Source: Perna viridis
Taxonomy: Eukaryota
DNA length: 64,000 nt
Direction: 5' to 3'
NCBI GenBank assembly: GCA_037379345.1
Contig: CM074517.1
Span: 4,836,001 to 4,900,000 of the forward strand
The translations under genes were made by a program, and so were the position numbers. The notes beneath the pieces are model-generated. The model was not told where the DNA came from and made no database searches. It saw nothing but the letters and a program-made list of their open reading frames with translations. Of this stretch, positions 51,622 to 57,679 are shown piece by piece (the stretch's first letter is position 1; the number at the start of each line of letters is the position of its first letter).

Positions 51622-52150
51622 CTACGCACTCTCCATGCATTTAGAAGAGCAGAAATGCACGCCTTTAATGAGATCGTACTCCTCCACCATCCTCAGTTTT
51701 ACGCCCGACCAGAGGGTGGCGAATTTGGATACGCTTATAGTCTCCTCGTGGATACGATGCAAGGCTTTGCCGCGGGCGATCTTAGCACCACACCGATAGC
51801 ATGCCTCGGGGAAAAGTTTCGAGTGCCTTTTGCATTTATCTCTGCCCGATATGGATGGGTACGTGCACTGAAGGCCACGGACGGTCTTGATGCAGCACGG
51901 TGGTCCGGGCGGCTGCTTAGGTTTGCGACGGGAGTGGGAATTATAGGTCATTCCTTCGAAATCCTGCTCATCGAAGCGGTTGGCGTGCCTTTCGGCGGCG
52001 CATCCACTGCAGCTATATCCTCGGATTTCGCCATGAAGAAGCACACCTCCCACCGGTGCTTGCATTCGGGGGGTGGTCGTGGGGCTTGGAAGCATTCTCC
52101 CGATCCAAGTCCCGCTGATTCTCCAGGAAAAAATCCTTCAAATGATCCAT
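51622..52150 (-). pseudogene. Multi-zinc-finger viral protein (frameshifted)
   Basis: GATAAAGA-ATG at 52150 gives MDHLKDFFLENQRDL; then CKH..CSGC, CCIKTVRGLQC..KCKRH and CYRCG..HFCSSKC (FCS/TRASH-like) in adjacent frames. Confidence 0.65.
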
Positions 52151-52158
52151 TCTTTATC

Positions 52159-52914
52159 TTAGACTCGATAGAACTCATCTATATTTCCCTGCCGCCTTGG
52201 GGCTCGTGAGATCGATGGTCAGGAATCGTGAGGCTTGGACCACCAGTGGTCGCATAGGGCATCGAATTGAGCCAGGGTGAGATCGCCGCAATGGTCCCGG
52301 CGGATATGATCACGATTCTTGGCATCCTGCTCGAAGAGGCAGATGAAGTTGCCATTCTCCTGGATCGATTGCCGCGGGAGGAGCTTGAATTAGTTTTGGC
52401 AGAGGTAGAAGCAGTCCACGTTATTATGGCGATCGCGCACGTAGTAGTCTTTGCACTTGCTGTGCTTGCTCAGCATCAAGTCTTCGAATGTCATGAGATT
52501 CTTGCGGCCGGAATCGAGCTCCCGAGGATCGGGTACGTCGCTCGCCTGCTCAAAGAAAAAAGGTTCGATACCGCTAGGCTTGGACGGTGGCCTCATCATC
52601 TACACCACGTCGACCAAGGAGTGGGGATAGCGATCCTTGCTGGAGAGAAGATCGCGGATATCATCTTTCAAAAACCCCTTCCCCAACGCCCGCCGCAGTA
52701 GCTGGTAGATGGGCTGGTGGAACGATTTTCCGAAGACGTAGAGTCGATCATAGTCGAGCCATCCATCGCGCAGGAGGAGGTTATTCAGCAGCGTTGTCTT
52801 GCCGCAGTCCGATTTCCCGATGATCAGACCTCGGATTGATCGCTGCGGGAGGAGAAAGTGGTTATGCCGACGACTCGCGGTGGGCTCATCGTAGGTAAGC
52901 TCTTCAACGTCCAT
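52159..52914 (-). pseudogene. A32/FtsK-like genome-packaging ATPase, disrupted
   Basis: IRGLIIGKSDCGKTTLL (Walker A), NLMTFEDL (Walker B), YYVRDRHNNVDCFYLCQN. In-frame stops at 52600-52602 and 52390-52392; tail LPRQSIQEN..IDLTS..GKYR..EFYRV*. Confidence 0.9.
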
Positions 52915-52927
52915 TTATCTATATAAA

Positions 52928-54331: not shown

Positions 54332-54538
54332 TCCTCAGCAGGCTTTCCGGTCTCGATCAAAGGAAACAAGAAAGTCTTGATTTACGCATGATTCAGCTCG
54401 ACGAAGACCCTTAATGCGTCCAGATCCGCCTGCAGCCGATCGTGAAGGGCTTTGGTGATAGCCCTGGGATGGGATGGGCATCCGCACCCGTCAGAACCTG
54501 CTAAATGCGGGATGGGCATCCGCACCTCTCAGAGCCTG

Positions 54539-57500
54539 CTAAGTGCAGAGGGGTGGTGGGGGACCTCGGTCGCGGGCGATTCCATAGTGTCCGTGGGCGA
54601 GGGTGCTGATGCCGCCCGGGAGGATGTGGCGCTTGTCCTTTTTGGCGGAGAGAGCGATCTTGTTGATCTCCGTGTAGATCTTATGGAAATGGTTCCGGAT
54701 GATATTCATCGGACGGTGAATCTCCTGCTGGGAGTCGAGGCATCGCTTGTAGTCCTCGAAGGCGATGCTGAGCTTGATGACGCCCTTGGTGACTCTCTTC
54801 GCCTTCTTGGTGGTCTCGTCATCCCCTACCTTGAAGGCGTATAGCTTCGCTCGTAGCGCCACGTATTCGGTCATGGTCTTGCCGCCGCACTCGTCCTTGA
54901 ACATCCCGATGATCTTCTTATTCACGCCGGTGGGGATGCCGGAGGGATGCTCGGTGGGGTAGTTGGACGTATCGAATTTTTCCTGTAGCGCGATGTCTTT
55001 GTAGAAGTCGGCGGTCTGGATTTCATAGGCCAAGCTGTCTGTGTCGGAAAAGAGCAGCCGGGCCTTATCGCCGTACGTCTTCCTCACGAATCCGTAGTGG
55101 AAGTCGTACATCAGGAGCTTCGAGATATCCAAGATGCATACTCCTAGGTAGATGGGCTTATCAAGCTTCAGCTCGGTCTTTTTCATTTGGACGGCTACCA
55201 AATTCTCGGTGAAGACGACGCGGCGATCGAAGTTGGGTTTGGCCACGAGCTTCAGGGCCTGCTTCGCGGTGGTGACTAGCATGACGTCGACGCGCTTCCG
55301 GATATTTTCCATCGTTTTGCCGAAGACCGAATTATTCATGAGCTTGAAAAAATCCTTCTCGGAGTCGGTCTTGGCCGCGGCTCGAAGCTTCGTATTCGGC
55401 TCGATATACGACTTGAGCCAGGGGGATTGCCTGAACACTATGATGCGATGGACTTTGACGAGCTTCATGCCCATCGATAAGTAGAGCTTGAGATTTCGAT
55501 AGTGGAGGGCATATTTTTCGCGCTTGCCTAGGTCAGGCACGAGCTGGTTGTGTGCCGCGCCCCGATACTTACCGGTGAGATGGTCGTGGTCCCGGACCTT
55601 ATCCCCATTCAATGCGCCGCCGCAGATGTGGCAGTGTGTGCTTGCTTCTAAGCTCTTCTTATCATCGTCGCTCATCTCCATCGGCTTCTTCTCCCTGCAT
55701 ATCTTGCTGATCGCTCGCACTTCCTCTTCGATGCACTGCCCAAATTTCTTGGCCGCATCCTCCCCGCAGTAGACGACCGATTCCTTGTAGTTGCCGTGGG
55801 CATACTTCACGCGATAGCAGAAACCTGATGACCGGTGCTGCTGATACTGCTTCGTGTAGGACTTGGTCGGGTCGGGCCGGCAGGTATCGATCTTCTCCGT
55901 GAAGCACTCACAGTCCGCGTAGAACGCGAATGGGACTCTCATCTGCTTCTTGTCATTGTGGAAGGCTATGGTGGATCCTTCTTCCGGCATCTCGATCCTG
56001 ATCGCATCCTTCTGGCTGCAATATTCCATCTGGTCGTCGAGAAGGTCCTGTCTGGCGAAGTGGTAAAGGCATCTGCGGCAGAAGAAGAGCCCATGACCAT
56101 GCTCTGAGATTTGTGAGCTCAAAAGGCGTGATAAGCTCCTGATCCAGCAGTAATGCTGCTTGCCTTCGCGGGTCAGGAAGAGGAGATCTACGTGGGAGGG
56201 GCCCGTATTCTTTGATATCCTGAGGGGGTAAATCTGGACATCCTCTTCCTCATCTTCACCCTTCTTTACGCCATCGAAGCCTAAAACGTTGACGTTGATG
56301 TTGGGGTTCTGCCTCTCGAATTTATCCATTGCCTTAAGTGAGACCGGGAAGTCGACGCCTTCGAATTTTAGCTCATCCTTCCATCTCTTGTACTGAGCTA
56401 CGCGGTTTGCTGACTTCTGGTCAACCTCATCGTAGTGTAGGGCTGCCAGCACCGCCCACTGGAAGCAACGATCATCCTCATTTTTCACACTGACGATCGC
56501 CTTCTTTTTCGCGAGTGCCGATGGCGTCGGTATGAAGGAACCCCCCTTGGGCGGCTTGAATTAGTTCAGATGGACTAGCTTATCGAAGCTGCTGAAAGTC
56601 CATCCACTCCCTTCCCGTATGTATCTTGCCATACTTTCCTTGACTTTCTCCATCATTGAGGGGATCTCCAATTCTAGGTCGTCAGATTCCACGATCATTG
56701 CCGTGCGTGATTAGAAGTAGGGGGTGATGTAGGTATTCTCCCCAGTCGCGGGGTTGGTTTTCACCATCTCTGCAAAGAGGACTAAGTGAACCTTCAATCC
56801 CTTCTTTTGAGCGAGCGCGATGATGGCGGTGGTGATGGTTCTCCGACTTACTTTGAGAAATGTGGTCACGTCGTGCGGCTTCACGGGTTCGATGACGACC
56901 GTACCAAATACACCATTCAGAGCTTCCCGCCTATCGGCGACCTTGATCTCATCCTCGAATGAGGCGCTTTTGATGTCCTCTTCCATCAAATGGAGTAGAT
57001 CGTCTCTCTTGAGCTGGGAGTATTTGGTGAGGCCACGATTCTTTGCTAGCGCTTCGAGCTGCTTTTTGCTGAAGACTTCCTGACGGGCAAATTTACGGGT
57101 GGTTTTCTCCTCGATGAGCTTCACCAAGGCCTCCTTGTTCTTCCTACTGACCCCCCTCAGACCCTCATTCTTAGCTATTTGACGAAGGGTCTTCATGGTC
57201 TCTTTTACCACCATCTTACCCTCGACTGGGATGACCTCCTCCTCCTCCTGCTGGCGTGGTTGCCTGCTATGCCTCCAGCAGAGCCATTCCTTCCCAGGCT
57301 TGCTCTTGCAGAACTGCCCCTTCTTTCTCTTGAGTGGGACGCCGCAGGTGGTCTTCTGCTCCCCTGGTTGATGCTCAAATCGCGGCTTGGTTGATTGTGC
57401 ACCGCAATTTTGACACATCTGGGTATGCTCATCCGTCTGCGTCACGTTGGGGTTACCACAGCACTGCCGCTGCCTTTGGGGGTTTGGGGTTGGAGTGGTA

Positions 57501-57679
57501 TTCTCCAAATCTTCTTCATTCTCCAGAAAGAAATCCTGTAAGCGATTCATATTATCACTATTGGATGCCATCCCTTTATTTATTTCAATTTGTGGCACAC
57601 CTCTCTTAAAGGTTTCCTTATCCACATCCCCACTATCCTCAGCTGGGACGACCTGACTTATGCTCTGTACGAAAGCCAT
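54539..57679 (-). pseudogene. polB: Protein-primed family B DNA polymerase polyprotein, with two stops and a large in-frame deletion
   Basis: One reading frame from 57679 to 54539 with stops at 56711-56713 and 56561-56563. Contains GSGW, KNEDDRCF..HYCWI, ExoI YADCE, CHICG..VRDHDHLTGKYRGAAH, KLMNNSVFGK (motif B), FSDTDS (motif C) and KLYAF..KKAK. Confidence 0.93.

Follow-up and report, generated by a model that had tools for sequence, protein, structure and literature searches.

A zinc-ribbon module common to the polymerase precursor and an accessory gene of a Perna viridis Polinton

The element and its two modules

The 64,000-nucleotide stretch of Perna viridis DNA analysed here (contig CM074517.1, positions 4,836,001 to 4,900,000, hereafter the window) carries a whole, integrated and decayed Polinton/Maverick (adintovirus-like) element on the reverse strand (47040..57798), in which the gene of the DNA polymerase (PolB) precursor and a small accessory zinc-finger gene, here called gene B, begin with related modules. 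The element is delimited by its terminal inverted repeats (TIRs), target duplication, GC content and gene set. The left (47040..47170) and right (57668..57798) TIRs, the latter containing the start of the PolB open frame, are 131 nt long and complementary at 96%; the ends read AGTAGT, the 6-bp target-site duplication, GTTTTA, is perfect, and the 10.8-kb island has a GC content of approximately 52-55% versus approximately 33% in the flanking DNA. The genes encode a pPolB with terminal-protein (TP) and vOTU domains, an rve integrase with a chromodomain, an ATPase recognized through weak P-loop matches only, and a double-jelly-roll (DJR) capsid protein. With these termini and genes the element is an ordinary integrated Polinton, of which the window copy, with all of the genes broken, is a dead relic. 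The same genome gave 79 matches to the PolB N-terminus and 51 to gene B DNA (matches, not copy numbers), and contains dozens of sibling elements.

PolB, on the reverse strand, opens with an acidic-aromatic head, MNRLQDFFLENEEDL (57506..57550), followed by a zinc ribbon, CC-x14-CxxCG ... RFEHQ (57368..57463), and by a CCCH finger of the DUF5763/TRM13-like kind, C-x11-C-x9-C-x2-H (57269..57346), all in the single frame (57550-57269) in which an earlier note on this DNA had read them. An in-frame ATG at 57571, seven codons before the head and preceded by an AT-rich stretch as at other starts, may be the true PolB start. Behind the finger come two Rho_N-like HEH repeats (approximately 56975..57196; PF07498 E 3e-5, two stretches in siblings, helices in the model), the TP domain and then vOTU (approximately 56130..56950, with stops at 56713 and 56563, the vOTU Cys and His motifs being present), and the remainder of PolB (54539..56130), placed by tblastn with the full-length relative P0010. 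These matches cover residues 1-678 and 991-1319 of P0010, so that approximately 310 residues have been lost internally.

The AlphaFold model of the PolB N-terminus of a sibling (L012; pLDDT 72.6) orders the chain as head helix (residues 4-16, with a low pLDDT of approximately 38), three-strand ribbon (pLDDT 68-76 across residues 31-50), CCCH and two HEH units, with an alpha/beta and then a vOTU-like domain behind them. The four best Foldseek matches of this model are Y-family polymerases, with a match confined to the little-finger domain lower in the list, and a Y-family little-finger-like fold has been assigned to the Polinton TP (PMC11071308); by this fold match the modelled alpha/beta domain is identified as the TP. 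Thus, the module, which the earlier note had put on the polymerase polyprotein, is on the precursor as claimed, and in the model it belongs to the TP half because it is located ahead of HEH-HEH-TP-vOTU. It has been hypothesized that vOTU cleaves the precursor after the TP (PMC11071308) and, therefore, the module would stay on the genome ends rather than on the polymerase.

Gene B lies downstream of the ATPase gene (51622..52150, reverse strand). In the window the reading frame of its 5' part switches twice, roughly at 52130-52040, so that the head, MDHLKDFFLENQRDL (52106..52150), is in a first frame, the CKH of the ribbon (52064-52056) in a second, and the CSGC, CCCH and FCS motifs in a third. 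The ribbon, CKH ... CSGC ... RFDEQ (51961..52064), is thus spread over two frames; it is followed by a CCCH finger spaced as in WRC, C-x9-C-x10-C-x2-H, but lacking the W-R residues (51823..51897), and at the C-terminus by a treble-clef-like finger, CxxC ... FCSxxC, that contains a long insert (51637..51801), the FCS finger to which this copy had been said to be joined. The latter is matched by zf-FLZ at E 0.033, below the cut-off and in the second knuckle only, and in some variants it is absent or swapped for a second CCCH.

The reading across the two frame switches, also proposed in the note, is confirmed by the siblings. Among 28 gene-B loci fetched (L013-L040; sampled non-randomly, as the best matches by DNA) at least 11 have head, ribbon and CCCH in a single natural frame from the same ATG, so that the start at 52150 and a DFFLEN head in frame with the Cys motifs both stand; 52150 is also taken as the start because most of the printed copies (the head was printed for 24) have an in-frame stop two codons upstream of the ATG. 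Sibling genes are open over about 180 aa, or 222 aa with additional cysteine clusters. The model obtained for gene B is poor (pLDDT 53.6), and in its Foldseek comparison with viral structures no match reached E 0.001; a 'WRC protein' found at E 0.2 is a lead only.

Relatedness of the two modules

PolB module and gene B are aligned by BLASTP at E 1e-6 and by HHalign profile comparison at a probability of 96.3% and E 1.8e-9 over columns 1-67 only; in genome searches each detects the other (within the window, E 7e-5). Sixteen PolB/gene B pairs were compared with 500 shuffles each, over the whole module and per segment. The whole module exceeded all 500 shuffles in 14 of the 16 pairs, one or two shuffles matching it in the two sister-type pairs. 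The head gave Z values of 6.5-10 in 14 pairs and was not significant in the two sister-type pairs, and the ribbon 1.8-5.6 over all 16. Furthermore, the ribbons of two gene-B variants (P0144 and P0165) match PolB ribbons at Z 3.3-11 in 12 pairs, which ties the ribbons of both paralogs together independently of the head.

The CCCH segments weigh against extending this relation over the full arm: 14 of the 16 pairs gave Z values between −0.1 and 2.1 and the remaining two 2.4-3.1, mostly not significant, and the spacings differ (C9C10C2H in gene B, C11C9C2H in PolB), so that they share a broad class with neither individually above chance. The motif order that had been noted from the sequence is confirmed, but the similar spacing does not extend to the CCCH. 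A chance or convergent likeness of common cysteine motifs would fit the CCCH segments, such fingers being common, but it can hardly be credited for the module: both head and ribbon exceed shuffles, they are collinear, intermediates connect them, and for these two parts the reading is refuted. Judged from the alignments, the shared module of approximately 100 residues is a true duplication with homologous head and ribbon, and the earlier suggestion of an internal duplication within the Polinton is borne out by BLASTP, HHalign and the single split of the tree described below.

The loose resemblance of the ribbon to the TFIIB/VLTF3 type does not amount to membership in the scans made: the best Zn_Ribbon_TF match has E 0.054 and 13.5 bits versus a cut-off of 29, the cyclin-repeat family is not matched, and VLTF3 gives no match in any of the 16 alignment members or in the other scans. 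Zn_ribbon_RPB9 reaches E 0.0012 on one protein (P0136), below its cut-off. The CCCH finger is, by its motif, of the widespread DUF5763/WRC/TRM13-like class. DUF5763 matches the PolB finger of the sibling L012 at E 8e-4 (19.2 bits versus a gathering value of 26.3) and, at E up to 1, two of 16 members. The WRC domain, which binds zinc and DNA, has the spacing CX9CX10CX2H (10.1101/2025.01.03.631214), found here in gene B only, the PolB finger being C11C9C2H; gene B has H/L-Q-C in place of W-R-C, and PF08879 matches none of the family members. Broader searches gave scores below 0.9 throughout in the ESM Atlas, nothing under E 0.96 in the PDB by sequence, and only unknown-function matches in PHROGs (E approximately 0.007).

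Of 22 heads, 21 have a net negative charge, with an aromatic pair, and the M-x-x-L-x-x-F-F of the two heads of the window resembles non-canonical PCNA-interacting (PIP) boxes. It could be asked whether the head is a PIP-like or Rb-groove motif recruiting host replication or cell-cycle proteins, a reading that we consider very improbable. The PIP box ([QM]-x-x-aliphatic-x-x-aromatic pair) was found in only three of 22 heads, is not conserved and was rejected, Rb-groove and FFAT patterns were found in none of the 22, and neither were the Oncoid motifs LxCxE and CR1 (first 130 residues); moreover, conservation reaches LENxxDL, past a PIP box. The presence of short motifs next to CXXC pairs in adintovirus Oncoid genes (PMC8502044) counts for this reading. 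The PCNA gene of the host is divided over exons.

Occurrence among relatives and direction of transfer

A profile of both paralogs gave 54 matches among 1.84 billion representatives, of which 36 were inspected and 20 looked up by name. The inspected matches that cover the module resemble family members, and the four of the 20 that carried a name are all from Mytilus coruscus; the remainder are multi-copy CCCH proteins of a generic kind (DUF5763/WRC/TRM13 type). All named close relatives and carriers are Mytilus, and related loci were not found in viral or metagenome contigs.

The best 120 of 207 PolB relatives consist of 112 distant proteins, seven full-length close ones and one chimeric gene model. 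Head, ribbon and CCCH are absent from all 112 distant PolBs (the two named ones are cnidarian), 98 of which start within 15 residues of the HEH. In the seven close PolBs the CCCH is found in 7/7, the ribbon in 4/7 and the FF core in 3/7. The PolBs without a ribbon include the earliest branch, yet retain recognisable head flanks. Two of them (P0013 and P0014) have lost both FF core and ribbon with the linker between them retained, which suggests that head and ribbon act together. Because three full-length relatives and the sister subfamily have lost head core and ribbon, the module is, by these comparisons, dispensable, lineage-restricted and labile, and its distribution is most simply read as a single acquisition by the ancestor of the Mytilus clade, then repeated loss with head core and ribbon going together. 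In the sister subfamily PolB has 1644 aa, with a large insertion in the exonuclease/polymerase region, …GRYW…EKIGLQNISRRIRH…DIDMKNAHPTLL… (L056 2769-3794, L057 3245-4738, P0014), presumably reminiscent of a PolA-like palm motif.

Trees were calculated on subsets of 20 rows (six of the 112 distant PolBs) and of 26 rows (long gene-B forms left out). The PolB-type modules are one side of a branch with 100/99 support, which therefore demonstrates a single event; gene B splits deeply into three lineages, and midpoint rooting places the root within it. A transfer from gene B to PolB is, on this topology, rather probable. The reverse, namely that PolB acquired the module first, from some external source, and later gave rise to gene B, with the same function, is most unlikely. 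In its favour, gene B has no outgroup, and the Mytilus PolBs that branch off first retain head remnants (Z 4.2-6.4 in the best pairs, controls not significant), which make the PolB copy old; against it, gene B goes deeper and shows more variation in both sequence and architecture, with long Cys-rich forms never found on PolB.

Rearranged copies were also observed. In L058 (746-3343) a sister-type PolB start is fused via a deletion to the integrase N-terminus and accompanied by a main-type long gene B, whereas in five proteins (P0140, P0141, P0148, P0152 and P0006) PolB head and ribbon are fused to other element genes, either a fibre-like open reading frame (ORF) directly after the RFE[NH]Q boundary (slightly later in P0140) or a gene-B head; the latter fusions are probably deletion derivatives or gene-model joins.

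Constraint and transcription

Between subfamilies, the dN/dS values of PolB were 0.32 for the head, 0.54 for the ribbon, 0.35 for the CCCH and 1.8 for the linker, and those of gene B 0.23, 0.55, 0.42 and 0.51, respectively, with 0.21 for the HEH repeats as comparison, all of them derived from 12-67 codons and non-independent pairs with post-insertion decay included, which tells against leaning on them heavily. They are indications of purifying selection on both copies, strongest on the head. Comparison of the paralogous heads gave pS 0.66 and pN 0.19, so that the head appears to be conserved as a protein and not through recent conversion; from this pS value and the clean split of the tree, recent gene conversion was rejected as the cause of the head similarity.

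In one raw RNA run (approximately 10 million records) 97 reads fell on the element; they extend over both modules, most of them with the same orientation, and none is 99% alike to the window copy. They provide weak evidence that sibling copies are transcribed; a search across sequencing runs listed no RNA holder. Contigs from three of three assembled runs skip or replace approximately 70 nt inside the ribbon.

These data bear on the main rival explanation, a passenger capture in which the duplication is real and the PolB module is a near-neutral leader, acquired with the 5' end of gene B and now eroding. Loss in at least 2-3 lineages, absence from the 112 distant PolBs, the dN/dS of PolB ribbon and linker and the skipped or replaced segment of the ribbon speak for it. 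The low dN/dS of the PolB head and the excess of pS over pN between paralogous heads speak against it, and so do the CxxCG, retained among PolBs up to approximately 0.4 substitutions per site apart, and the DNA upstream of the two head ATGs, in which nothing in common was detected, the best DNA alignment being the 33-nt head itself. Passenger capture is thus held to be unlikely, although it keeps an appreciable share of probability.

Proposed origin and function

We give an about even chance to the proposal that a single graft placed the 5' half of gene B at the front of the PolB precursor, and that the module would stay on the TP, forming a dispensable arm with predicted roles in partner docking and nucleic-acid binding. 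Cleavage by vOTU after the TP, as hypothesized (PMC11071308), would leave the module on the TP at the DNA ends, where the acidic FFLEN helix and the zinc ribbon would dock a host factor and the CCCH would bind nucleic acid. Free gene B, going by composition and class, would be a small adaptor resembling a transcription regulator, with an acidic aromatic helix of the activation/docking type and zinc fingers, and the TP-borne copy would recruit the same partner in cis to the genome as this enters or replicates, which could serve nuclear or chromatin tethering or early transcription, for instance. The regulatory or transcription role already suggested in the earlier note is, therein, plausible.

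A more specific, and doubtful, version is that the activator half of the element's own regulatory gene has been placed on the TP, so that both ends of each incoming genome would carry a transcription- or chromatin-recruiting module by covalent tethering, i.e. a cis-acting immediate-early activator, with free gene B supplying or competing for the same host factor in trans. It is rather improbable that the two copies form a homotypic or decoy switch, in which gene B would bind the TP-PolB arm via the shared module, or compete with it for one partner, and tune replication versus latency. The most-conserved surface is the same one in both paralogs, both genes are on one strand of one element and zinc ribbons often dimerise, but elements with a module-less PolB still have gene B (L057, L058).

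Several observations weigh against the grafting of a docking arm. The docking partner and the activity of the module are predictions, the hydrophobic moment of the head is mostly not above shuffles and the confidence of its models is low (pLDDT 38-56). The ribbon is missing in three of the seven full-length close PolBs (P0011, P0013 and P0014), one of which has a 20-member cluster, and in locus L057; therefore, any benefit of the module would be small. The direction of transfer depends on midpoint rooting and parsimony, no named relative of gene B outside Mytilus was found in the sequence searches, and L058, in which the PolB start is of the sister type and gene B of the main type, implies that genes move between subfamilies. 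The CCCH similarity of the paralogs is mostly not significant, and the RNA support consists of 97 reads, none of them 99% alike to the window copy.

Other features of the element and its surroundings

The broken packaging ATPase gene (52180..52914, reverse strand) is recognized from weak P-loop matches and from sibling frames that are open over 201-246 aa. Next to it lies, on the forward strand, a broken ORF for DUF5679, rve integrase and chromodomain (52895..54331), the N-terminal part of which (53100-53200) contains, besides DUF5679, a stretch HLPGHNFTGPG that is reminiscent of parvoviral PLA2-like motifs. A 22-bp tandem repeat is found between gene B and the capsid operon (51257-51545); PolB and integrase have a 38-bp direct repeat between them (54471-54546), with a related copy at 51368.

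From the left TIR starts a 110-aa ORF on the forward strand (47159-47491), which shares a TIR-encoded upstream stretch with PolB; it gave 104 genome matches, many with open frames, and no match in Pfam and PHROG searches. Its beta-rich pattern is presumably reminiscent of OB-fold single-strand binding proteins. A third copy of the head on this ORF (EDFFQE) was rejected, other subfamilies having EDAFQE or DNVFEE. In the host sequence, an intronless FkbM-family methyltransferase gene (41291-42262, reverse strand; PF05050, E 2e-13) is flanked by 34-bp and 32-bp tandem arrays.

Relation to known systems

Polinton accessory genes, and the sequences ahead of the TP, are almost uncharacterised, and the locus offers a traceable case of a TP arm that was probably built from a neighbouring gene and that several lineages later lost; donor-like and recipient copies are at hand, as are intermediates and natural deletion variants. 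The module, small and testable, is a candidate for the means by which Polinton genomes engage the host nucleus. The scope of the case is limited by a single host genus among the named records, by a dispensable module and by an inferred function.

Among known systems, DUF5763, WRC and zf-TRM13_CCCH proteins share CX9CX10CX2H with gene B; the PolB finger matches DUF5763 weakly and the profile retrieves such multi-copy proteins, but all scores are under the curated cut-offs and neither the W-R residues nor a QLQ domain is present. With the ribbons of TFIIB, RPB9 and VLTF3 the module shares a predicted three-strand ribbon with two knuckles; it differs from them in scoring below cut-offs, in the lack of cyclin repeats or a VLTF3 domain and in a second ligand that varies among copies. 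The Oncoid and Ziftr genes (PMC8502044, PMC11071296), as there described, encode, like gene B, small accessory proteins with a short linear motif beside paired cysteines and a proposed regulatory role. Unlike them, gene B has no LxCxE/CR1 (0/22) and no C2H2/CTCF-like match, and it lies downstream of the ATPase rather than upstream of PolB, with half of it duplicated on PolB.

The order TP-vOTU-EXO-PALM described for the pPolB precursor (PMC11071308) is the same here, with a TP fold like the Y-family little finger and the vOTU motifs present; the difference is the additional N-terminal arm of head, ribbon and CCCH before the HEH, common to the accessory gene, and the main text of that paper does not mention 'zinc' or 'HEH'. 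Acquisition of domains by fusion has been reported for pPolB, as in the helicase-pPolB of OmPLV and in Tlr1 (PMC12721341). There enzymes were added, whereas here the addition is a small non-catalytic module whose paralog is kept in the same genome. No description of the module was found in the literature searched, most subscription journals and supplementary genome maps being outside its scope, and the module is apparently an undescribed, modest and lineage-restricted variant of the known accretion of domains by pPolB.

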